Assembly (NCBI GenBank): GCA_017937135.1
Contig: JAGBEE010000012.1
Span: 11,250 to 75,249, forward strand
DNA: 64,000 bases
DNA from: Clostridia bacterium
Lineage (GTDB): Bacteria > Bacillota > Clostridia > Oscillospirales > CAG-272
Direction of reading: 5' to 3'
Part shown: positions 4,315 to 47,734 of the stretch, piece after piece
Layout: every line of letters begins with the position of its first letter
Position numbering within the stretch: the stretch's first letter is position 1
Program-made: the position numbers and the translations under genes
The notes under the pieces: generated by a model
Database searches by the model: none
Told to the model about the DNA's origin: nothing
What the model saw: the letters and a program-made list of their open reading frames with translations, nothing else

Positions 4315-7149
4315 TTAGTCCTTATAGTCGTTAAGAGCCTTTTTGACATAAATGCCTGTGTATGATTTGGGGTTTTTTGCAACCTGTTCGGGAGTTCCCG
4401 TTGCAACAATTTCTCCACCACCATCGCCGCCCTCGGGGCCAAGGTCGATTATATAATCTGCAGTTTTAATTATATCAAGATTGTGCTCAATAACAATAAC
4501 GCTATTTCCTGCATCTACAAGACGCTGTAGTACGCCAATAAGCTTTTTAACATCGTCAGTATGCAAGCCAGTAGTTGGCTCGTCAAGAATATAAATTGTT
4601 TTTCCGGTTGAACGCTTAGATAGCTCAGTTGCGAGCTTAACCCTTTGCGCCTCACCACCCGAGAGAGTAGTAGAGGATTGACCAATCTTTACATAGCCAA
4701 GACCGACATCGCAAATTGTTTGAAGCTTTTTAGAGATAGATGGAATTTCACTAAAGAATATAGCGCCCTCCTCAGCGGTCATTTCAAGAACATCAGAAAT
4801 ATTTTTGCCCTTGAATTTCACCTCCAAGGTGTCAGTGTTATAGCGCTTGCCCTTACATACGTCGCATTTAACGTAAACGTCAGGCAAAAAGTGCATTTCT
4901 ATCTTTTTTACACCATCGCCCTCACAGCTTTCGCATCGTCCACCCTTTACGTTAAAGGAGAAGCGACCTGGACCGTATGAACGCATTTTAGCATCTGGTG
5001 TTTTAGCGAATAAATCACGTATTTCAGCAAAAAGACCCGTATACGTGGCTGGATTTGAGCGTGGAGTGCGTCCAATTGGAGATTGGTCAATTGCAATTAC
5101 CTTGTCAAGATTTTCGTAGCCCTCAACCCTGTCGCACTTGCCAGGGAAGGTTATAGCGCGATTTAATTTACTTGCAAGCGTTTGAAGCAAAATTCTATTA
5201 ACAAGCGAGGATTTTCCAGAGCCAGAAACACCTGTAACTGCAACGAAGCAGCCAAGAGGAATTTCAACGTTTATATTTTTCAAATTGTTTTCCTTAGCGC
5301 CAATTATTTTCAAAAAGCTACCATTACCTTTGCGTCTTGTAGTTGGAATTTCAATTTTTTCTCTGCCCGAGAGGTAAGCTCCTGTTATGGAGTCTTTATT
5401 CTCCATAACCTCCTTTGGAGTACCACAAGCAACTATTTCTCCGCCGTGTACGCCTGCACCGGGACCCACATCAATAATATAGTCTGATTCGAGCATTGTT
5501 TCCTCATCGTGCTCAACTACAATAACACTATTACCAACATCGCGTAAGCTTTTTAAGGTATTTATGAGCTTGGAGTTGTCTCTTTGGTGTAAGCCAATGC
5601 TTGGCTCGTCAAGAATATATAAAACTCCAACAAGGGAGGAGCCAATTTGAGTTGCAAGTCTTATTCTTTGTGCCTCACCACCAGAGAGAGTAGCGCTTTT
5701 CCTCGCAAGCGTTAGGTATTCAAGACCAACGCTTTTCATAAAGCCCAAGCGCGCTTTGATTTCCTTTAAAATCTCCTTGGCAATTTGAAGCTGTCCACCC
5801 TCGAATTTAAGATTATTTACAAAATCAAGCGCATCCAAAACGCTCATTCTACAAAACTCGTCAATATTCTTGCCATTAACTGTAACTGAAAGAGCTTCTT
5901 TTTTTAGCCTTTGTCCGTGGCAAACAGGGCAGGGGACCTCCTCAATAAACTGCTCATAATACTCAGTATCAAAAACAGACATACGGGATTCCATAGTCTT
6001 AATAATACCCTCGAATTTTACAGTCTGCCTTTTGTGTTGCTTTGCAAAATATCTGTCAACCGTATAGTATTCATCGCCTGTGCCATATAAAAGCGCATTC
6101 ATTTGCTCTTTCGTAAAATCCCTTAGGGGAGTGTCGATATTAAAGCCTAAACGCTCTCCAACAGCAATTAAAAGAGGACCTGTCCAGCTTTCCTTATCAA
6201 CAGTTTTAAAGCCATTTACCTGTATAGCGCCTTGACGTAATGTAAGGTTCTTATCAGGAATAATTTTATCTGGAGAGATGTTTCTCATTTCACCAATTCC
6301 AAGACAATGCTCACAAGCACCAAATGGATTGTTAAATGAAAACGCTCGTGGTTCAAGCTCGCTAAAGCTGATATTGTGCTCCTCGCAGGCGTAGTTTGTT
6401 GAAAACTCGTATTCCTTACCCATACCATCTCTTGGCATTGTAAGAATAGTAACCTTACCATCGCTAGCACGTAACGCATTTTCAACAGAGTCGGAAAGTC
6501 TTGCACGAATTCCTTCCTTCATCACAAGACGGTCAACAACTATGTCTATATTGTGCTTTTTAGTCAGTTCAAGCTCAATATCCTCGCTTAAATCGTACAC
6601 TGTCCCGTCAATTCTTAATCTTGCATAGCCATTTTTGCGCGCGTCAGTAATCACCTTTTCGTGCCTACCCTTTTTACCACGCACACAAGGAGAGAGCACC
6701 ATAAATCTCTCGCCCTGGTCAAGCTCTAAAATCTTGTCAATAATCTGGTCAACGCTTTGTTGCTTAATTTCCTTGCCACAAACGGGGCAGTGGACAGTGC
6801 CAAGTCTTGCGTACAAAAGTCTTAAATAGTCATAAATTTCCGTAACCGTACCAACGGTTGAGCGTGGGTTTTTTGAGGTAGTTTTTTGGTCTATTGAAAT
6901 AGCAGGAGAAAGTCCCTCGATGGAATCAACATCTGGCTTATCCATTTGTCCTAAAAACTGTCTTGCATAGGATGAAAGCGACTCAACAAAGCGCCTGTGA
7001 CCCTCTGCATATATTGTATCAAAGGCAAGAGAAGATTTTCCCGAGCCTGAAAGTCCTGTTAATATAACAAGCTTATCGCGTGGAATAGTCAAATCAATAT
7101 TTTTGAGATTATTTACCCTTGCGCCCTTTATTTCTATTTTATCCTTCAT
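4315..7149 (-). CDS. uvrA: Excinuclease ABC subunit A
   Basis: 944 aa with two ABC modules (GLSGSGKSS and GVSGSGKSS Walker A motifs, two LSGGE signatures) and CxxC zinc modules. Confidence 0.97.
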
Positions 7150-7159
7150 TTTGTTTCCT

Positions 7160-9130
7160 TTATTTTGTATCCTTGCTTTTAGTAATTCTTAATTCTTTAA
7201 TTCTATCGCGTAAATATGCCGCCTTTTCAAAGTCGAGCTTGGATGCAGCCTCGCGCATTTGTTTGGTGTATTCCAATATGAGCTTTTCCTTATCATCCTT
7301 GCTCATTCTGCCAACCTTAGCACGCTCGGATTTCTTACCGAGGTCAATAACATCGTAAACTCCCTTGATAATAGTTTTTGGAATAATACCATTTTCCTCG
7401 TTATATTTTGTTTGAATTTCGCGACGTCGATTAGTTTCGCCAATAGCGTTTTTCATTGATTTTGTTATTGTGTCAGCATACATAATAACTCGGCCGTTTG
7501 CATTACGTGCAGCACGACCAATTGTTTGTATAAGTGACGTTTCTGAACGGAATAGTCCTTCCTTGTCGGCATCGAGTATAGCAACGAGCGATACCTCGGG
7601 AATATCAAGTCCCTCGCGAAGAAGGTTAATTCCCACAAGCACGTCGAACTCACCAAGACGTAGGCTCCTTATTATCTCCATTCTTTCAATCGTATCAACG
7701 TTATGGTGAATATATTTTGCTTTTATATTATTAGCGCTTAGATATTCAGTTAAGTCCTCAGCCATTTTGGTTGTTAAGGTAGTAACTAAAACACGCTCGC
7801 CAGCCTCGCAGCGAAGCTTGATTTCACCCATAACATCATCAACCTGTGTTGAAATAGGACGTATTTCAACCAAAGGGTCAACAAGCCCTGTTGGACGGAT
7901 GAGCTGCTCGGCAAAATTAGTTGAATGCTCCTTTTCAAATGGACCAGGAGTTGCCGAAACGAAAATTGTTTGGTTTAGCTTTGATAAAAACTCCTCAAAA
8001 TAAAGAGGTCTATTATCATAGGCAGATGGCAAACGGAAGCCAAATTCTACAAGATTTTTCTTTCTTGCCAAATCACCACCACTCATACCTCTTATTTGAG
8101 GCACAGCCACGTGGCTCTCATCAATAAACAAAAGAAAATCATCGGGGAAGTAGTCAAGAAGCGTATATGGAGTTGAGCCTGGCTCGCGTCCTGATAAAAT
8201 GCGCGAGTAGTTTTCAACACCCGAGCAAAATCCGATTTCTCTTAGCATTTCAATATCGTACTTTGTACGTTCCTCAATCCTTTGTGCCTCTAATAGCTTG
8301 TTTTGAGACTTAAAAAACTCAACTCTTTCAAGCATTTCCTCATGAATTTGGTTAAGAGCCTTTTCTCTCTTTTCATCAGAAACTACGTAGTGATTAGCAG
8401 GGAATATAGCCGTATATGAAAGGTGTCTTAAAATCTCACCTGTTAATGTGTTTATTTCACAAAGACGGTCAATTTCCTCACCAAAAAACTCAACCCTTAT
8501 CGCCTTATCAGAGGATGAGGCAGGGAAGATTTCAACCACGTCCCCGCGTATTCTAAACTTATTACGTACAAAGTTAACGTCATTTCTTTCATAGTTAAGA
8601 CTTACAAGACGTCTAACGAGCTCATCACGCGACATTTCAGCTCCTTGCCTTAAATCTATAAGCATATTCTTGTATTCTAATGGGTCACCAAGGGAATATA
8701 TACACGAAACACTCGCAACAATTATAACATCACGCCTTTCAAAAAGCGCGCTTGTCGCGCTGTGGCGCAATTTATCAATTTCATCATTTACCATTGCGTC
8801 CTTTTCTATATACATATCCTTACCTGGAATATATGCCTCGGGCTGATAGTAGTCATAGTACGAAACAAAATATTCAACTGCAGAATCAGGGAAAAGCTCT
8901 CTCATCTCGGAGCATACCTGGGCAGCCAAGGTTTTGTTTGGCTCTAAAATAATAGTCGGGCGATTGGTATTGGCAATTACATTTGCCATAGTAAAAGTTT
9001 TACCCGAGCCTGTAACGCCTAAAAGAGTTTGCATTTTTTCGCCACGCAAAACACCATCGGTAAGCTTCCTTATAGCCTGTGGCTGGTCACCCGTTGGCTT
9101 GTATGCGCTTTTTAGAACAAATGTATCCAT
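7160..9130 (-). CDS. uvrB: Excinuclease ABC subunit B
   Basis: 656 aa with GVTGSGKT Walker A, a DESH box and a C-terminal UVR motif ([14 protein letters not shown]). RBS GGAGGG. Confidence 0.97.
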
Positions 9131-10971: not shown

Positions 10972-12327
10972 TTATAAAAATTTAACAAGCTTGTAAATGT
11001 CGCCAGCACCCATTATAACGACACAGTCACATTCGCAATTTTTAATATAGCTTGAGGTGGCGCACAAATCCTGTAAGAAAATTCCACCACAATCACGCGC
11101 AAAGCCCTCATCAGTTATTTCATAAATGTTTTCCTCTCTTGCCGAGTATATTGGCAAAATAACAAGCTTACTTGCATCCTCAAACGCCTTTGTAAATTCA
11201 TCATAAAGGAAAAAAGTGCGCGAATAGGTATGAGACTGAAAAACACAAAGTATTTTTTTGTAGCCCATTTCCAAAAGGGCGCAAAGAGAAGCTTTTATTT
11301 CTGTTGGATGGTGAGCATAATCCATAAAAACAGGCGCACCTGTGTCTGTTTTCTTTATTAGCTCCATTCGTCTTTCACTACCCATAAATGATGAAATAGC
11401 ACCACAAATTACGCTTGGAGCGATATTGTTTTCGCTGGCAACCGAAAATGCACATAGGGCATCGTATATAAAGTGCTCACCAAAAAACGTTGACTTGCAC
11501 TTGCCAAGAAGCGCCCCGTTTTTATAGACCTCAAAGCCATAAAAATCGGGAGAGTGTATGATTTTTGCTTTATACATAGCTTCGCTTTTTATTCCAAAGG
11601 TTATTTTTTCCTTGGCTACAATAGAAGTCGATGCTTCATCATCTGCATTTATAAATACGCGCTTAGCCTTATTTGCAAATTTATTAAAGGAGCATTTTAT
11701 ATCATCGAGAGATTTGAAAAAATCTGGGTGGTCAAAATCAATGTTTAAAATCACTGCATCATCACAGGGCAAGGATAGAAAGGAGTTCATATATTCGCAC
11801 GCTTCAAATATACAGCACTGTCCCTTTTTTATTAAGCAAGCACTATCATACAGCTTCATTTCTGCGCCACAAAACGAGGTGGGATTTCTTGAAGCGTAGT
11901 CAAATATATGTGTAATTAGCGCGCAGGTTGTGCTTTTACCGTGCATACCCGATACACCTATTTTTGTTTTGTATCGTGAAATTATATAGCCAAGAAAATT
12001 AGCTCTTGAAATAGTTGGTATTTTTAACTCATTGGCTCTTTTATATTCAAAATTGCTCTCATCAATTGCGCCCGTAAATATTACCATATCCATACAGGAA
12101 ACATTATCGGGAGTTGAGTAATATTTTATATTACAAATTTTCTCAAGCTTTTTTGTAACACGGCTCCTTGTCCTATCATACCCAAAAACCTCCTTGCCAA
12201 GATAGACGCAATATGTGGCAAGAGAGGACATACTAATGCCACCAATTCCTATAAAGAAAATTCTTTTTGCATTTGTGAAAAAATTATGAATTTCATCAAG
12301 CTTAAAATTTGTATTTTCAATAGCCAT
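10972..12327 (-). CDS. murC: UDP-N-acetylmuramate--L-alanine ligase
   Basis: 451 aa with N-terminal FIGIGGISMS and the Mur ligase P-loop GVSGMHGKSTT. Confidence 0.93.
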   Translation of the reverse strand: MAIENTNFKLDEIHNFFTNAKRIFFIGIGGISMSSLATYCVYLGKEVFGYDRTRSRVTKKLEKICNIKYYSTPDNVSCMDMVIFTGAIDESNFEYKRANELKIPTISRANFLGYIISRYKTKIGVSGMHGKSTTCALITHIFDYASRNPTSFCGAEMKLYDSACLIKKGQCCIFEACEYMNSFLSLPCDDAVILNIDFDHPDFFKSLDDIKCSFNKFANKAKRVFINADDEASTSIVAKEKITFGIKSEAMYKAKIIHSPDFYGFEVYKNGALLGKCKSTFFGEHFIYDALCAFSVASENNIAPSVICGAISSFMGSERRMELIKKTDTGAPVFMDYAHHPTEIKASLCALLEMGYKKILCVFQSHTYSRTFFLYDEFTKAFEDASKLVILPIYSAREENIYEITDEGFARDCGGIFLQDLCATSSYIKNCECDCVVIMGAGDIYKLVKFL

Positions 12328-12930: not shown

Positions 12931-14193
12931 ATGGCAGTAAAGATACAAAAGCCAAGAGGCACAATGGACATTTTTCCAAGCGAGGCGCTTATTTGGCAGA
13001 AGATAGAAGAAAAGGCAACGGACGTTGCAAAAAGATTTGGCTTTGGTGAAATTCGCACCCCTACCTTTGAGGAGCTTTCGCTTTTCAAAAGAGGAGTTGG
13101 CGAGGTAACTGACGTTGTACAAAAGGAAATGTACACCTTTCAGGACAGAGAAAATCGTGTTTTTGCGCTTCGTCCCGAGGGAACAGCATCGGTTGTACGC
13201 GCAATTATAGAAAATGGCAAAACCTCTGATGTTATGCCACTTCGTTATTTTTATTTAATCAATTGCTTTAGATACGAAAAGCCACAGGCTGGTAGAAGTC
13301 GTGAGTTTTTCCAATTCGGCACTGAGATGTTCGGCACTAAGGACCCATCAAGTGATGCAACAGTAATTTCACTTGCCGACACTCTTATCAAGGAGCTTGG
13401 CATTAAAGACGTTAAGCTGAATATCAACTCAATAGGCTGTCCTGAGTGTCGCCCCAAGTACAGAGAGGCGCTTGTTGAATATTTTAAGAGCCACGAAGGC
13501 GAGCTTTGCGACACATGCAAGGAAAGACTTAAAACAAACCCCTTGCGCGTTCTTGACTGCAAAAGCCCGATTTGCTCCGAGATAGCAAAGGATGCGCCAA
13601 AAACGATTGATTATTTATGTGATGAATGTCACGAGCACTTTGAGGATTTAAAGGAATATCTCAAGGCGCAAAATATTGATTACACAGTAAACCCAAGAAT
13701 AGTAAGAGGACTTGACTACTACACAAAGACTGTATTTGAATTTATCTGTGACTCAATTGGTGCGCAAAGCACAATTTGTGGTGGTGGTAGATACGACGGA
13801 CTTATGGAGCAGCTTGGTGGACCATCATTACCTGGCATCGGCTTCGGTATGGGTATTACAAGACTTATTTTGGCTATGCAGGCAAGTGGAGTGCTTGACG
13901 AAAAATTGCCCGAGCCACTTCTTTATATTGCACCAATGGGCAAGGAGGCAAAAATCAAGGCGCTTTCCATCGTTGCTAATTTAAGAAATGAGGGTGTATA
14001 TGCCGAATGTGATATAAGCCAAAGAAGCTTAAAGGCACAAATGAAATACGCTGATAAAATCGGTGCAAAATATACACTTATAATAGGTGATAGCGAGCTT
14101 GAAAGTGGCAAGGCACAGCTCAAGGATATGAAAAACAGCACACAAAGCGAAATTGAAATAGACAATATTTGCAAGGTTATCCTTGGCAAGTAA
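12931..14193 (+). CDS. hisS: Histidine--tRNA ligase
   Basis: 420 aa class II aaRS with HisRS-typical KPRGTMD, FRYEKPQAGRSREFFQ and GGGRYDGL. Confidence 0.95.
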   Translation: MAVKIQKPRGTMDIFPSEALIWQKIEEKATDVAKRFGFGEIRTPTFEELSLFKRGVGEVTDVVQKEMYTFQDRENRVFALRPEGTASVVRAIIENGKTSDVMPLRYFYLINCFRYEKPQAGRSREFFQFGTEMFGTKDPSSDATVISLADTLIKELGIKDVKLNINSIGCPECRPKYREALVEYFKSHEGELCDTCKERLKTNPLRVLDCKSPICSEIAKDAPKTIDYLCDECHEHFEDLKEYLKAQNIDYTVNPRIVRGLDYYTKTVFEFICDSIGAQSTICGGGRYDGLMEQLGGPSLPGIGFGMGITRLILAMQASGVLDEKLPEPLLYIAPMGKEAKIKALSIVANLRNEGVYAECDISQRSLKAQMKYADKIGAKYTLIIGDSELESGKAQLKDMKNSTQSEIEIDNICKVILGK

Positions 14194-14204: not shown

Positions 14205-15986
14205 ATGGACATATTTGAAAAGAATGATAAACGCACTCACTATTGTGGCACACTCTCAAAGCAAAATGTAGGACAAAGAGTATGTGTGCTTGGTTGGACT
14301 CAAAAGCAAAGAGACTTAGGCAGCCTTATATTTATCGACCTAAGAGACCGTTCAGGCATTGTTCAGCTTGCGTTTGATGAAAATACAGAAAAATCTATCT
14401 TTGACAAAGCATTTACCGTAAGAGCAGAATTTGTTCTTTGTGCAAAGGGCGTTGTAAGAGAAAGAAGCACAGTAAATAAAAATATTCCAACAGGTGATAT
14501 TGAAATCGCAGTTGATGAATTTAAAATCTTGAACAAGGCACAAACACCACCGTTTGAAATTGTTGACGGTGGAGATGTTAAGGCAGAGCTTCGTATGAAG
14601 CACAGATACCTTGATTTAAGAAGACCCGAAATGCAAAGAAACATTATTGCTCGTTCAAAAATAGTTAATCTTACAAGAAACTACTTTAACGATAATGGCT
14701 TCATTGACATTGAAACACCAAACCTTATAAGACCTACTCCCGAGGGAGCAAGAGACTACTTAGTACCAAGCCGTGTTCACAAGGGTAATTTTTACGCGTT
14801 GCCACAGTCCCCACAAATCTATAAGCAGCTACTTATGTATTCTGGCTTTGACAGATACATACAAATAGCAAGATGCTTCAGAGACGAGGACCTAAGAGCA
14901 GACAGACAGCCTGAGTTTACACAAATAGATATGGAAATTTCATTTACAACAGAGGATGAAATTATCGCTATAAACGAGGGATTTCTCGCATACATTTTTA
15001 AGAATTTTATGAATAAGGAGCTTAAAACTCCATTCCAAAGAATGACCTGGCACGAGGCTATGGAGCGTTACGGCTCGGACAAGCCTGACATTCGTTTTGG
15101 CTTTGAGCTTACAAATATTTCCGATATAGTAAAGAATAGCGAGTTCAAGGTATTTGCAGGCGCTGTTCAAAACGATGGCTCAGTTCGCGCAATTAACGTA
15201 AAGGGTGGAGCTAAGTTTTCAAGGAAGGAAATCGATTCCCTTACTGAAAAGGCAAAGCATTACCACGCAAAGGGACTTGCTTGGCTCAAAAAAGCAAATG
15301 GTGAAATTTCCTCATCCTATGCTAAGTTCTTGACAGAGGATGAAAACAATGCAATAAATCAAAGACTTAATGTCGAGGATGGCGACCTTGTTTTAGTAGT
15401 TGCTGATAAAAATAAGGTAGTTTTCGACACCTTGGGCGCACTTCGTTGTGAATGTGCAAGGCGCTTAGGACTTTTAGACCCTATGGACTTTAAGTTCCTC
15501 TGGGTAACAGAGTTCCCACTCTTTGAGTATAGCGAGGAGGATGGCAGATACTACGCAATGCACCATCCATTCACAGCTCCAATGACAGAGGATTACGAAT
15601 ATATTGACACCGACCCAGGCAGAGTAAGAGCAAGAGCATATGATATTGTTCTCAATGGTACAGAGCTTGGCGGTGGTTCAATTAGAATTAACACAACAGA
15701 AATGCAAGAGCATATGTTTAGCGTGTTAGGTATTAGCAAGGAGGATGCAAACGAAAAGTTCGGCTTCCTGCTTGATGCCTTCAAGTATGGCGTACCCCCT
15801 CACGGAGGACTTGCATTCGGTCTTGACAGACTTGTAACCTTGCTTTTAGGTCTTGAGGACATAAGAGAGGTTATCGCATTCCCGAAGGCGCAAAATGCAT
15901 CTGAAATAATGTCTAAGTGCCCATCATTTGCAAATCCCGACGATTTAAAAGAGCTTGGAATTGCAATTATTGAATCAGAGGAATAA
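14205..15986 (+). CDS. aspS: Aspartate--tRNA ligase
   Basis: OB-fold N-domain plus class II core (FRDEDLRADRQPEFTQID, GGGSIR, PPHGGLAFGLDR). Start set at ATG 14205 with a GGAGGA RBS; the track ATG at 14169 overlaps hisS. Confidence 0.95.
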   Translation: MDIFEKNDKRTHYCGTLSKQNVGQRVCVLGWTQKQRDLGSLIFIDLRDRSGIVQLAFDENTEKSIFDKAFTVRAEFVLCAKGVVRERSTVNKNIPTGDIEIAVDEFKILNKAQTPPFEIVDGGDVKAELRMKHRYLDLRRPEMQRNIIARSKIVNLTRNYFNDNGFIDIETPNLIRPTPEGARDYLVPSRVHKGNFYALPQSPQIYKQLLMYSGFDRYIQIARCFRDEDLRADRQPEFTQIDMEISFTTEDEIIAINEGFLAYIFKNFMNKELKTPFQRMTWHEAMERYGSDKPDIRFGFELTNISDIVKNSEFKVFAGAVQNDGSVRAINVKGGAKFSRKEIDSLTEKAKHYHAKGLAWLKKANGEISSSYAKFLTEDENNAINQRLNVEDGDLVLVVADKNKVVFDTLGALRCECARRLGLLDPMDFKFLWVTEFPLFEYSEEDGRYYAMHHPFTAPMTEDYEYIDTDPGRVRARAYDIVLNGTELGGGSIRINTTEMQEHMFSVLGISKEDANEKFGFLLDAFKYGVPPHGGLAFGLDRLVTLLLGLEDIREVIAFPKAQNASEIMSKCPSFANPDDLKELGIAIIESEE

Positions 15987-16000
15987 AATGAGAATCCCGA

Positions 16001-16388
16001 CCTTAGCGTGATTCCTTAACGGACAAATCACGCTAAACGATGCTTGCCCTCACGGGCAAATGATGTTGCCTATGGCAATGATGTTCACTTTGTGAATGAT
16101 GTTGTGCCTTCGGCACAGTGAGCAAGCATCACATCATTGAAAACGTATGTGAGCAACATCATTATGCGAAGCAAAAACATAACTAACAGAAAAAAGAGAG
16201 GACATTTCGGATTTCCCGATTTGTTCTCTCCTTCTATTTGTATATGGGTTCCTCGAAGCGAAGTATGAGCTTTTTCGGTGGGCACATATATGGCTTTGAG
16301 CTTAGCCCAAGTGTATTTGACCGGTCAAATGTAATGCTCGCACTTAGCGGTGTTTTTCAAATTCTCCGCTAAGAATATCACCCATTCT
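16001..16388 (+). repeat. Intergenic repeat R1, copy A (hairpin-array element)
   Basis: Aligns by eye along its length to the reverse complement of 47272-47638. The core 16040-16140 matches at about 95 of 100 positions. Contains an array of short hairpins separated by AATGATGTT, and a hairpin plus T-run on the minus strand at 16190-16231. Confidence 0.8.
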
Positions 16389-16455
16389 GTCGGGATTTTG
16401 TTTATCTTCTTTTCATTTTTTTAAATACGTGCTATAATTACTATGAGGTGATATT

Positions 16456-40344: not shown

Positions 40345-40347
40345 ACG

Positions 40348-40378
40348 AAAATCGAGGCTGTTTTGCCTCGATTTTTTA
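40348..40378 (+). terminator. Intrinsic terminator
   Basis: AAATCGAGGC (40348-40357) pairs with GCCTCGATTT (40365-40374), followed by TTT. Confidence 0.75.
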
Positions 40379-40623
40379 TATTTATAAAACAGAAAGCAAT
40401 CATTTTTTGCAAAAAACATCGCCAAAACGCGACAAAATATGCAAAAAGAGAATAATATTCATTTTTGGCTTTTGCCTTTATTCACGATTTGGTAAAAACG
40501 TAGAATTTTAAAAAATTTTATTTTCAACTTTTATTATTAGTTAACTAATCAATTTTATATATAGTGCACAATCATTTTAGGTATTTGCCTATAATGAAAA
40601 AAATAGTTGAAACTTTTATATGG

Positions 40624-40717
40624 CGTGGAAAACTCAGTTGAAAAAGTGAAAAACTCCAATAAAATCGTGCCAAGTTTTCCACTTTTCCACACTTGACACC
40701 CGTGGAAAAGTGGAAAA
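40624..40717. promoter_or_regulatory. Cluster of five DnaA-box-like words (TTTTCCAC/GTGGAAAA), including a perfect 16-bp inverted repeat
   Basis: CGTGGAAAA at 40624-40632, TTTTCCACT at 40675-40683, TTTTCCACA at 40683-40691 (one mismatch to TTATCCACA), CGTGGAAAA at 40701-40709 and AGTGGAAAA at 40709-40717. The arms 40675-40690 and 40702-40717 are exact reverse complements. Confidence 0.4.
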
Positions 40718-40869
40718 AGTGCTTAATTTTACTCATTTGCCGAAAATCAAGAGTGTAGAAAAATAAAAAAATTCAAAAATTGACTTGACAAAAAAATATT
40801 CACAAAACGATGAATAATTTTAGTAAGATAAAGTAATTCTCAACAAATTGCACAAAAAAATGTATAATT

Positions 40870-41100
40870 TTAATCCTGACTGCTCTTTAAAAAAATAATA
40901 AAGCCACTGCTTAAAAGAAACGTAGAGGCTACTATGTACTCGCACAAATTCCTCATATTTGGTATCACGTGAAATTGTATATAAGCGCTTTGCTCACACA
41001 AAAGCAACGATAAAACGTAAAACGCGCAAAAAATAATAAGAATGTACATAAGCTTAAAGAGATTGTATGCGTGAACTTTTTTAAATCCAAAATTGAACAT
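40870..41100 (-). CDS. Possible small membrane protein (76 aa, two hydrophobic segments)
   Basis: The only ORF in a 1-kb AT-rich gap. An AGGAG-like RBS (plus-strand CTCCTT at 41107-41112) lies 6 nt upstream. No homology recognised and it could be spurious. Confidence 0.3.
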   Translation of the reverse strand: MFNFGFKKVHAYNLFKLMYILIIFCAFYVLSLLLCEQSAYIQFHVIPNMRNLCEYIVASTFLLSSGFIIFLKSSQD

Positions 41101-41357
41101 AAAAGCTCCTTTCTATGATTAAAATTTAAGTCAAGCTACTTAAATATGCTATATCTCCCATTTAATTATAGATTATAAAAATACTGCTTTCAATGCAAAA
41201 TATATACCAAAAATGTAATCAAATTACAATTTGCAAAGCATTTTATGGCTTGTGTATGCTTTGTGTTGAAAAACCGAAAAAGAGCTGAAAATATCAAATT
41301 TTTGATACTATCTATTGCAATTTAAAAAAAATTATTGTATTATATAGTAGTATAAAA

Positions 41358-45260: not shown

Positions 45261-47252
45261 ATGAAAAAGAAAATATTTTTTGTATTAATGATGGTTGCTT
45301 TGATGGTAACTATACTTGCTTCTTGTGGTGCTTCCTGTGAGGAAACAGGACACACCTTTGAAGAAACAGTTATCAAGGCTGCGACCTGTACAACAGCGGG
45401 CTCAGGAACTAAAAAATGTTCCGTTTGTGGTGTGGAAGAGCCTATGACAATTCCACCACTCAAGCACAAGCTTGACAAGAATAACCCTACAAGAACCGTA
45501 GAACCAACCTGTATGGAAAATGGTGCTACATACGCTAAGTGCCAAAATGCTGGCTGTGATTACGAGGAAAAGATTGCAACATTAGATGCAAGCCTTGACT
45601 ACTGTGATCTTGAAGAGAAGAAAACAGAGCCTACCTGCTTGGGCAAGGGTTATACTATGAAGGTTTGTAAGGTTTGTGGTAACGACCAGGATATGCAAAG
45701 CATTGATCCACTCGGTCATACTTATACAAGAGAAAACCCAACTGGAATTACATATAAAGCTCCAGTATGCTTAACTGATGGCTCTATTACAATCAAGTGT
45801 CTTGAATGTGATTTGGAAGAAAATGTTGAAGAGGGCGAATGGACCTACTCAAAATTGAACGATGAGTCATTGGAAATTCCAGAGGTTGTAAAAGCAATAG
45901 CTGCAAACTATGACCTTGAGCCACTTGAACATATTTGGGATGCAAAGAATGAAACACTCAGCGTTGCTCCAACATGCACGGAACCAGGCTACGATATGTG
46001 CAACTGCTCACGTGAGGGCTGTACAGCAGAAGCTGTTAAAACAGCAGATTACGAGCCGCTTAAGCACACATTTGAAAGAGATGGCTTTGATATTAACAAT
46101 GTAGCTCCAGAAGATCGCGAAACTATTATTTCTCCTTCCTGCTGGAACAATAATGGTAAAGACGTAGTTCTTTGCTCTGATTGTAAAGTACAAAGCACAG
46201 AGCACTTTATCGATTTACCTGCTCTTGAGCACTATATTACATACGATGCATCAGATGTAACAGCTGCAACTTGTACAGAGGGCTCATTTGAATACCGTAA
46301 ATGTACAGGTAAGGGCTGTCAATTGGAAAAAGAAAAATTCTATACAGGTGTTAATGCCCTCGGTCACGATATGGTTCTTTACGATGCATTGTTGACAGAT
46401 GGAGAGCCTACATGTAAAACACTTGGTAATTACCCATATCATTGTAGCCGCTGCGAAGCATTTGATAAAGATTATCAAATTAACTTAAAAGGCGAAACAC
46501 AAAAGGATGCGCCTCATATGGGATATACAGCCGGACAATTCACCAACACAGAAAAGGGTGAAAAGGCACCTACTTGTTACGAATATGGTGTATATTACTG
46601 TGAAGACTGTAAAACAACATTTACAGACAAGGATGATAATGCTTGTAAGCCTACAGGTATTCACAGCTACTCATCTGAATATGAAGGTAACGAAGTAGTT
46701 AATCCTACATGTACAGAAGAAGGCTACACAATTTACAGGTGTCAACAGCCAGGCTGTCAAGAGTTTGAACACAGAGATTATGTTGTAAGAGCTGCTCACA
46801 CATTTGATGAGGTAACTAAGGATGGTATCCTTGTATGTACATGTGGTGCACAATATATCAACACAACAACAATAATGAAGGTTGAAGGCGAAACTGCTCT
46901 TCCTGGAGTTGACGGTGTAACTGTTGCTCCAAATGGAACAAAATATCCTGATGCACCCCAAGCTATCGGTACAACCTCTAAGGAATTCAACTTCTCAGCA
47001 GAGGATAAGAACGAGGATGGAGTAAATGACAACCTCGCATACGGACTTATCGAGCTTAAGGGTACGGCTGATACTGTTTATACAGTAAAGGTTTACAATG
47101 CAGATGGTGAATGCACCACTCTAAAGGCTCTTGCATCAGAGCTTAAGGGCGAAACAGTTTATGTTGACCTCTACGAGTGCGACGATGTTGTTAAGGTAGA
47201 GATTTCTGCTACAACAGATGCAACAGTTTCCTTCTACTACAAAAAGGCATAA
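45261..47252 (+). CDS. Lipoprotein with about 10 tandem Cys-triad (C-x3-G-x5-C-x2-C ... H) repeats
   Basis: Signal peptide plus lipobox (MVTILASC). Repeats of the form PTCxxxGxxxxxCxxCG, each followed by (P/A)L(K/G/E)H. C-terminal domain of about 110 aa. RBS AAGGAG. Confidence 0.75.
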   Translation: MKKKIFFVLMMVALMVTILASCGASCEETGHTFEETVIKAATCTTAGSGTKKCSVCGVEEPMTIPPLKHKLDKNNPTRTVEPTCMENGATYAKCQNAGCDYEEKIATLDASLDYCDLEEKKTEPTCLGKGYTMKVCKVCGNDQDMQSIDPLGHTYTRENPTGITYKAPVCLTDGSITIKCLECDLEENVEEGEWTYSKLNDESLEIPEVVKAIAANYDLEPLEHIWDAKNETLSVAPTCTEPGYDMCNCSREGCTAEAVKTADYEPLKHTFERDGFDINNVAPEDRETIISPSCWNNNGKDVVLCSDCKVQSTEHFIDLPALEHYITYDASDVTAATCTEGSFEYRKCTGKGCQLEKEKFYTGVNALGHDMVLYDALLTDGEPTCKTLGNYPYHCSRCEAFDKDYQINLKGETQKDAPHMGYTAGQFTNTEKGEKAPTCYEYGVYYCEDCKTTFTDKDDNACKPTGIHSYSSEYEGNEVVNPTCTEEGYTIYRCQQPGCQEFEHRDYVVRAAHTFDEVTKDGILVCTCGAQYINTTTIMKVEGETALPGVDGVTVAPNGTKYPDAPQAIGTTSKEFNFSAEDKNEDGVNDNLAYGLIELKGTADTVYTVKVYNADGECTTLKALASELKGETVYVDLYECDDVVKVEISATTDATVSFYYKKA

Positions 47253-47271
47253 TTAAATTAAACACGACTCT

Positions 47272-47638
47272 ATTGGGTGATACCTTAGCGAAGAATTTAC
47301 ACTTTAGTAAAAGTGACAGCATCGCATTAGATTGGTCAAATGCGAATATATGCTAAGCCCAAAATATTATAACAAGCAGAGAAAGAGAGAACAAATCGGT
47401 TTTATAAGCCGAAATGTTCTCTCTTTTTTCTGTTAGTGATGTTTTTGCTGACGCAAAAGTGATGTTATGCTTCACATAATGATGTTGCTCGCAAAAGCTC
47501 ACAATGATGTGATGCTTGCCAACTGTGCCGAAGACACAACATCATTCACAAAGTGAACATCACTGCCGTAGGCAACATCATTTGCCCGTGAGGGCAAGCA
47601 TCATTTAGCGTGAATGCTCCGTTAAGAGCATCACGCTA
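47272..47638 (-). repeat. Intergenic repeat R1, copy B (inverted relative to copy A)
   Basis: The reverse complement aligns to 16001-16388. It carries one extra hairpin unit (about 47437-47459) relative to copy A. Confidence 0.8.
47384..47430 (+). terminator. Intrinsic terminator embedded in R1 copy B (serves the lipoprotein gene)
   Basis: AGAGAGAACAAATCGG (47384-47399) pairs with CCGAAATGTTCTCTCT (47409-47424), followed by TTTTT. The equivalent hairpin in copy A (16190-16231) faces the minus strand. Confidence 0.55.
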
Positions 47639-47734
47639 TTTGGAGTCCTGTTTTTTTATTCATCATATATTCACAGGGGCGTAATTTAAAATATTAGAAA
47701 AATCAAAAACAAAGGAATTTTATATAGAATTTAC

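Follow-up and report, generated by a model that had tools for sequence, protein, structure and literature searches.

The window analyzed here (the whole stretch of 64,000 nt of DNA from a Clostridia bacterium) contains an element of ~385 nt that is dispersed, modular, gene-less and structurally constrained, and whose presence or absence is polymorphic between near-identical strains. An earlier note, made from the sequence alone, had described an 18-nt-periodic array of mini-hairpins at 16040-16185; the array is not a stand-alone locus but the middle, core module of this larger element. We consider it probable that the element is a non-autonomous, mosaic, structured mobile element of the REPIN/BIME/BOX/MITE kind, and that it spreads or is recognized as a folded single strand. 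It is one copy from a family, not described before, of structured and apparently mobile elements found in Clostridia of gut and rumen.

The periodic array forms the core of an element of ~385 nt

The motif TGATGTT starts at 16061, 16079 and 16097, exactly 18 nt apart, as the earlier note had reported, and Tandem Repeats Finder detects the array with a period of 18, 2.6 copies and a score of 57. The 9-nt word AATGATGTT occurs eight times in the window against 1.3 expected, a count reached in none of 100 shuffles, and seven of the eight occurrences fall in two clusters. The four mini-hairpins that had been described, all perfect stems with sequences unrelated to one another, are present on the + strand: H1 (TTGCCC-TCAC-GGGCAA, 16044-16059), H2 (TTGCC-TAT-GGCAA, 16066-16078), H3 (TTCAC-TTT-GTGAA, 16084-16096) and H4 (TGTGCC-TTC-GGCACA, 16103-16117). 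The complements of the linker that had been claimed for the 3' half are likewise found (ACATCATT at 16131-16138 and AACATCATT at 16155-16163), as is the claimed complementarity of GATGCTTGC (16040-16048) and GCAAGCATC (16122-16130). We conclude that the 18-nt periodic array is real and far above chance.

Homology among copies reaches past 16040-16185, the span first proposed, which is too short, and covers 16003-16384 (copy 1, features given on the + strand). From 5' to 3' the element consists of the P0 hairpin, the array, an internal hairpin that resembles a terminator, and module B, without genes, and it is neighbored by aspS (593 aa) on one side and a DUF4186 gene on the other. The left boundary is sharp at TAGCGTGAT (nine copies compared, with unrelated upstream flanks), and homology ends on the right at GATATCACCCA. 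The P0 hairpin, the 5' end module (TTAGCGTGATT...AATCACGCTAA, 16003..16036), marks the start of homology. The array as a whole (16037..16184), supported by covariation and by covariance model R1, which scores 127 bits on copy 1 at 16036-16163, begins with L0 (ACGATGC, 16037-43), carries words between its hairpins at 16059-67, 16077-85 and 16095-103, and continues after H4 with GCAAGCATCACATCATT (16122-38), a degenerate H5 (16139-54), the anti-word at 16155-63, H6 (16164-73) and, at its 3' end, a degenerate anti-word, ACATAAC (16177-83). Copy 1 is thus partly degenerate, with H5 disrupted and the last anti-word mutated, and one hairpin unit is deleted in it relative to the second copy described below.

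The internal terminator-like hairpin (GAGAGGACA...TGTTCTCTC, 16196..16230) is preceded by an A run and has a clean T run, TTTTTTCTGTT, on the minus strand, so that it can act bidirectionally; it is kept in copy 2, L003, L048, L152, L124 and L135, and in copy 1 and L003 its + strand contains a G.T wobble. A spacer follows (16231..16297), of which ~40 nt are peculiar to copy 1 (an alignment gap relative to copy 2). Module B, the 3' end module (16298..16384), consists of a CTTAGC/GCTAAG closing helix around a TTGACCGGTCAA hairpin and a second hairpin, ends in ATATCACCCA, and is kept in copy 2, L003, L048 and L152, whose genomic contexts all differ. Regarding the neighboring gene, the mechanical open reading frame of aspS starts at a TTG at 14169, homologues (100% identical, 593 aa) begin at an ATG at 14205, and hisS ends at 14193.

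The window contains a second, inverted copy

A second copy, in inverted orientation and missed in the earlier note, lies at 47274..47638 on the minus strand. It is 365 nt long and better preserved than copy 1, and comprises module B (47274-47360), the internal hairpin (47384-47424), an array with four words and five anti-words (47435-47605) and P0 (47606-47638). It is 82% identical to copy 1 (15985-16400) across ~400 nt, scores 130 bits with covariance model R1 and has a fold z-score of -12.2. The two window copies are about as distant from each other as are copies from different species, and an identity of 82% within one genome argues against a recent burst. The earlier note had named, as what would undo its reading, a degenerate tandem duplication with no copies elsewhere; there are copies elsewhere, and, as shown next, the stems covary.

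Selection acts on structure, and one strand appears favored

The proposal that structure, rather than sequence, is under selection holds in a model-based alignment of 41 sequences, in which 90.5% of cells pair. Covariation, the check that the earlier note had suggested, is pronounced: 19 of 28 pairs change on both sides, giving 159 compensatory cells, a result reached in 0 of 500 shuffles and to be compared with at most 26 compensatory cells in slid controls. Pairing of H1-H3 is 97.9% in an independent MAFFT alignment. The complementarities noted first, between linker and anti-linker and between GATGCTTGC and GCAAGCATC, prove to be conserved design features, and a sister family (L059) has the same helix. 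The long-range helix GATGYTTGCC/GGCAARCATC pairs in ~40 sequences and shows compensation in both directions, from T-A to C-G (both window copies) and from C-G to T-A (L093 and L021). Since any word can stand in for any other, MFE folding does not distinguish local hairpins from long-range pairing in alternative registers.

The wobble and G.A features belong to one strand, which in copy 1 is the + strand. G.U outnumbers A.C (59 vs. 15, or 26 vs. 13 with the outermost pairs excluded), about 25 of 35 sequences keep the tandem G.A/A.G of H5, and in 23 of 31 arrays the better fold is that of the + strand; all these figures of strand asymmetry are indicative only, the sequences being related and the alignment fitted to a + strand model. 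Among homologues the units differ in length by 1-4 nt, with loops of 3 or 4 nt and with 5-7 bp in the stems, which, with compensatory substitutions in the stems, rules out a protein-coding repeat.

Both window copies occupy the apical loop of a host terminator

Both window copies sit within the apical loop of a host intrinsic terminator, that of aspS for copy 1 and that of a gene for a 663-aa protein (45261..47252) for copy 2, and they have opposite orientations relative to the genes whose terminators they occupy. Copy 1 is placed exactly between the left half of the aspS terminator stem, AATCCCGAC (15993..16001, +), and the right half with its T run, GTCGGGATTTT (16389..16399, +), and the MFE fold pairs the left half, which the element has separated from its partner, with 16389-16397. 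The same site is empty in the sister genome L165, in which AspS is 98% identical and gene order is the same: the gap between aspS and the DUF4186 gene is only 90 nt and contains the intact, uninterrupted terminator AAAATCCCGACA-GTCT-TGTCGGGATTTT. Copy 2 is placed between CACGACTC (47263..47270, +), a partly decayed left half, and the right half with its T run, GGAGTCCTG-TTTTTTT (47642..47657, +), and its site is empty in L166 (same assembly as L165), where CAGGGCTCC-AAAT-GGAGTCCTG-TTTTTT stands after the orthologue of the 663-aa gene. Within the clade with 99% identical AspS, L167 is filled (5 substitutions) and L169 is empty; in L168 the contig breaks off inside the element. MFE folds of both filled loci close via the host terminator stem, with z-scores of -8 to -12. 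We conclude that terminator-loop occupation by the two window copies is demonstrated by comparison with empty sites. The difference probably arose by insertion rather than by precise loss, a polarity read from the filled and empty ingroup genomes.

Exactly complementary flanks of 9-12 nt are found at copy 1, L003, L152, L048, L127 and L114, and the flanks of copy 2 are complementary with one mismatch. At L003, L048, L152, L127 and L114 the complementary flanks are 11-12 nt long with A and T runs, features from which these loci appear to be split terminators; no empty site turned up for any of the five. No copy was found in ~100 kb from five related species, and seven junction pairs show no consistent duplication.

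The 663-aa protein has no Pfam match and has homologues only in Clostridia MAGs, with identities that drop steeply (99%, 84%, then <=37%); in the sister genome it is 84% identical, compared with 98% for AspS. In a sister species with 92% identical AspS (L160), a short run of mini-hairpins lies just 3' of the aspS terminator (11855-11925), with ACGC-TTGC-GTGT, TGTG-CTTG-CACA and GCC-GAA-GGC and with ATTTCA/ATTCA words between them; the run may be another word family or a remnant, and the DUF4186 gene after it is left uncalled in the record.

The element belongs to a dispersed family with concerted word pairs

Homologues were sought with sequence patterns in collections of genomes and metagenomes, and then with nhmmer and the covariance model. 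Among the matches listed for a first genome-wide pattern of three TGATGTT motifs, most were coding repeats. Taken together, these searches recovered ~40 homologues, from Oscillospiraceae, Acutalibacteraceae, Ruminococcus, Faecousia and unclassified Clostridia MAGs, with further sources in gut or rumen metagenomes and one copy in an IMG/VR contig. Flanking genes and proteins differ, and are unrelated, from locus to locus. Several signs point to multiple copies per genome: two in the 64 kb of the window, two in L139, two word families side by side in L059 and in L048 (see below), and the contig break inside the element in L168. The two copies in L139 flank a single ADP-ribosylglycohydrolase gene, and before one of them (reverse strand, 5110-5146) a tRNA is represented by no more than its 3' portion (T arm and acceptor strand, with the CCA end), which looks like the att-site remnant of an integrated element.

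Three subtypes have the array in common and differ in their end modules. Subtype (a), that of the window, has P0, array, internal hairpin and module B. Subtype (b), linked to tRNA genes, consists of tRNA-CCA, its own covarying terminator hairpin, array, outward promoter and diverse small genes; the conserved outward promoter (TTGACA-17-TGATATAAT) is correctly placed ahead of the diverse genes, and the array is located not in a loop but after the subtype's own terminator, an arrangement that resembles co-option. Subtype (c) has a different P0 and an internal unit of promoter, hairpin and terminator. In L114 (about 1990-2140), L127, L011 and L137, elements of type (c) show a promoter-like TTTACC-17-TATAAC, downstream of which come a ~30-nt hairpin and then a clean intrinsic terminator; such elements may carry a tiny transcription unit inside.

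The word AATGATGTT and its reverse complement, which fills the 3' half, are invariant within the family. The sister family of L059 has the same architecture with the word pair GTGATAT/ATATCAC, and its start/middle helix, TTATATTCGCC/GGCGAATATAA, is complementary and unrelated in sequence to that of the main family. In L048, a relative with rearranged modules carries words of the TTATGAT type (GTTATGATG, GATCATAAC and ATCATAGC), and two word families stand side by side in L059 and in L048. The L048 element (5830-6560, -) is a mosaic of internal hairpin, array, P0-like hairpin, 250-nt spacer and module B, an order different from that in the window, which indicates that modules reassort. Several arrays (e.g. 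L145 and L136) have words and hairpins only, without anti-words, so that the zipper is not universal. In L003 (about 7400-7425, - strand) the H5 loop contains a nested extra mini-hairpin, ATTTGC-GTA-GCAAAT; on a small scale as well, the family may expand through insertion of hairpins into loops.

Among the loci there is no conserved synteny or neighbor gene, with the exception of occasional genes for PF05635 (the 23S rRNA intervening-sequence protein), the only recurrent neighbor family. Pfam identifies such genes directly behind the outward promoter in L021 (4846-5214) and L075 (4471-4917); L158 probably has one as well, judging from its first residues, which are all that can be read. The link is limited to the tRNA-linked subtype, with which it may be coincidental. 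A clustered PF05635 homologue lies ~780 nt upstream of the element in L142. In L059, the sister element (2417-2670, +) lies directly 3' of a terminator that follows tRNA-Gln, and behind it come a promoter and what appears, read by eye, to be a frame-disrupted PF05635 gene; an element of the main family (family A) lies 1.2 kb beyond, giving the order element, gene, element, gene behind the tRNA.

A probable mobile element, proposed to be handled as a folded single strand

The element is present at sites that are intact and empty in close strains, and its copies stand in unrelated contexts, as is general for mobile elements. The element would spread, or be recognized, as a folded single strand (ssDNA in replication or transposition, or RNA), with the hairpins as structural arms and the word/anti-word rungs as the sequence read by a family-specific trans-acting protein. 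Identical words, exact anti-words and their concerted replacement in relatives argue for such a reader rather than for intramolecular pairing alone. The compact fold would join the ends of the element and let the interrupted host terminator stem close, and the internal bidirectional hairpin would serve as a replacement terminator; with a re-closing stem and a replacement terminator, insertions in terminator loops would be tolerated. There is no transposase or recombinase in the 64-kb window, and near the copies no enzyme recurs. A classical MITE has terminal inverted repeats that match a parent IS, and a target-site duplication; here the ends, TAGCGTGAT... and ...ATCACCCA, have only GTGAT in common, inverted, and the seven junction pairs show no consistent duplication. 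The conservation could be accounted for just as well by long-term purifying selection, that is, by a host function.

More specifically, the element might be a hairpin-loop-homing element: a gene-less structured ssDNA or RNA that homes into the apical loops of intrinsic terminators, in the way that IVSs occupy rRNA helices, with a family-specific ladder of 9-nt words and anti-words read by a protein, hairpin arms free in sequence, PF05635 (an S23p/Avd-like four-helix bundle) as the candidate reader, and a second role as a portable terminator/promoter module. We offer this version tentatively and consider it unlikely.

Alternatives to mobility

One alternative is a host-beneficial cis element of 3' ends, a portable terminator, insulator and promoter module, or an mRNA 3' stabilizer, which, whatever its origin, would be selected for termination and downstream expression. 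The association with terminators is constant and the internal hairpin bidirectional; the tRNA-linked subtype combines its own covarying terminator, the array and the conserved promoter; at copy 2 the old terminator half has decayed, as if replaced; and conservation across species is as high as within the genome. However, close strains do without the element at both window sites, copy 1 is partly degenerate, and the element can point either way with respect to the host gene, yet its structural features are strand-specific. Moreover, a plain terminator or stabilizer needs neither an invariant 9-nt word nor its complement. We regard this explanation as unlikely for the element at large, although co-option as a terminator, insulator or promoter module, especially for the tRNA-linked subtype, is plausible.

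A binding-site array in duplex DNA, with nine copies of the 9-bp word in two orientations bound by a nucleoid, topoisomerase or regulatory protein or by a transposase, is in our view improbable. BIMEs bind IHF and gyrase, and multi-site transposon ends bind transposase; words and anti-words here are exact reverse complements that change in concert in sister families, a behavior for which recognition of duplex DNA gives a simple account, and the elements lie downstream of highly transcribed units (tRNA operons and aspS). A duplex array nevertheless leaves unexplained the hairpin spacers kept by compensatory change, the strand asymmetry and the conserved G.A mismatches, and its 18-20 bp spacing is out of helical phase.

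Very improbable, finally, is the CsrB/RsmZ-like transcript suggested in the earlier note, a trans-acting sRNA that would show UGAUG words between hairpins and so titrate another RNA or a protein. In its favor, identical single-stranded words, four to five of them, stand amid stable hairpins, the wobble and G.A features are strand-specific, L145 and L136 have arrays without anti-words followed by a terminator, and hexamers resembling a promoter lie ahead of both window copies (15961-15989 and, on the minus strand, 47690-47662); but promoter-like matches occur at background frequency, nine copies compared upstream of P0 share no conserved promoter, which also speaks against an independent sRNA gene, homology starts abruptly at TAGCGTGAT after unrelated flanks, the words have intramolecular complements in full elements, the repeated motif is UGAUG and not the GGA of CsrB/RsmZ, no partner is known, and the window copies lie in host terminator loops, differ from each other in orientation relative to their host genes, and are absent from strains with 98-99% identical AspS.

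Identities considered and rejected

CRISPR and TIGR arrays have constant repeats and hypervariable spacers and lie beside cas or tas (Nop-domain) genes; a guide array of this type was rejected, the inserts here being palindromic and conserved position by position across species, and the neighbors being aspS, the DUF4186 gene, pheA and the gene for the 663-aa protein without a Pfam match. A composite transposon or island between the inverted copies was rejected as well: the 31 kb between them are housekeeping (nadABC, ribF, tex, tilS and ftsH), and each copy has its own empty site. Likenesses seen by eye to a T-box (GGGTGATACC in module B; wrong position, no Rfam match), to rrn boxA (GCTCTTAAC, inside the hairpin loop of P0), to ssoA CS-6 (TAGCGT; chromosomal and multi-copy context), to Box C (RUGAUGA; no box D partner) and to the Rex box and Chi were dropped. 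An argument from replication orientation was abandoned, GC skew tracking only gene strand with no origin evident. In the 1-kb AT-rich intergenic region upstream of tilS (40345-41357), DnaA-box-like words occur in direct and inverted pairs (GTTTTCCACTTTTCCACA at 40675-40692, GTGGAAAAGTGGAAAAAGTG at 40702-40721 and GTGGAAAAC near 40626); the region may be a DnaA-box cluster, and GC skew shows no sign of an origin there.

The earlier note knew of no described family with this linker, and none that matches was found. Rfam 15, whose families include CsrB/RsmZ, 6S, T-box, HEARO/omega RNAs and group II intron domains, gives no match at gathering score in the whole window and only noise, at E of 1-10, at 15950-16450; on 20 related loci it finds tRNAs only. 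The window contains no tRNA or tmRNA gene, phage and plasmid collections contain no match to the element, and searches of the literature by sequence and by concept returned no description of the family.

Significance

In this family from uncultured Clostridia of gut and rumen the layout is inverted with respect to known repeats, in that the word is constant and the palindromes are free. Terminator loops are occupied cleanly and repeatedly, with empty sites for comparison, which offers a route to understanding how selfish DNA settles in compact genomes with gene expression unbroken, and filled and empty terminators form a natural series for termination with very large structured loops. The concerted word pairs constitute a sequence code that should lead to the mobilizing or binding protein. 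In practice, the elements break MAG assemblies and can be mistaken for sRNA genes or CRISPR-like arrays.

Comparison with known systems

Structured intergenic repeats (REP/BIME, REPIN and BOX) are known mainly from Proteobacteria and streptococci, and the analogy that the earlier note had drawn to BOX or REP/BIME modular repeats points to the right kind of thing. REPINs are non-autonomous, often flanked by A/T runs and tied to termination (PMC3337134). They are mobilized by RAYT tyrosine (HUH) transposases. Like REPINs and REP/BIMEs, the element is non-autonomous, extragenic and multi-copy, with several families per genome possible. As in REPINs, inverted halves fold as a hairpin in ssDNA or RNA, with a spacer that is free in sequence and kept in pairing; here the two halves are the words and anti-words and the GATGYTTGCC/GGCAARCATC helix, and the spacer hairpins covary. 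Unlike in REPs, the constant part is a non-palindromic 9-nt word present 4 + 4-5 times. The constant palindrome with a GTAG head typical of REP (20-30 nt; 20-40 nt across REP/BIME/REPIN) is absent: the palindromes here are 13-16 nt long and differ by position, and it is the linker that is constant. Unlike REPINs, the element has extra modules (P0, internal terminator and module B), a location in terminator loops and a host in Clostridia, not Proteobacteria. No RAYT (HUH/Y1) gene is present in the 64-kb window, and no transposase recurs near the other copies.

Pneumococcal BOX elements (boxA-boxB(n)-boxC) are modular intergenic repeats with variable internal units, complementary ends and a stable overall fold. 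The element resembles them, by architecture alone, in being modular, variable in unit number and foldable as a whole; it differs in its units, which are 45-59 nt in BOX and 18-nt hairpin-plus-word units here, and we know of no terminator-loop targeting described for BOX.

Some IVSs of 23S rRNA carry a PF05635 (S23p) ORF (PMC4990558). An IVS is a selfish, structured insertion, and the element is like it in taking the place of a hairpin's apical loop in RNA, with the host stem as closing helix. It is unlike an IVS in its target, which is not helix 25 or 45 of rRNA but an intrinsic terminator, and in that the window copies have no ORF. IVSs are cut out of the transcript by RNase III. Insertion into a hairpin loop, together with PF05635 at L021, L075 and probably L158 and a remnant at L059, makes the IVS-like reading a lead.

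Other elements have targets set by an extragenic hairpin or terminator, as here: IS1397/ISKpn1 and IS110-family elements insert into REP hairpins, and class C group II introns insert at terminators. No intron or IS RNA family in Rfam matches the element. Unlike the element, these systems are autonomous, with their own transposase or with a ribozyme and reverse transcriptase; and class C introns insert after the hairpin, whereas the element described here lies in the loop.
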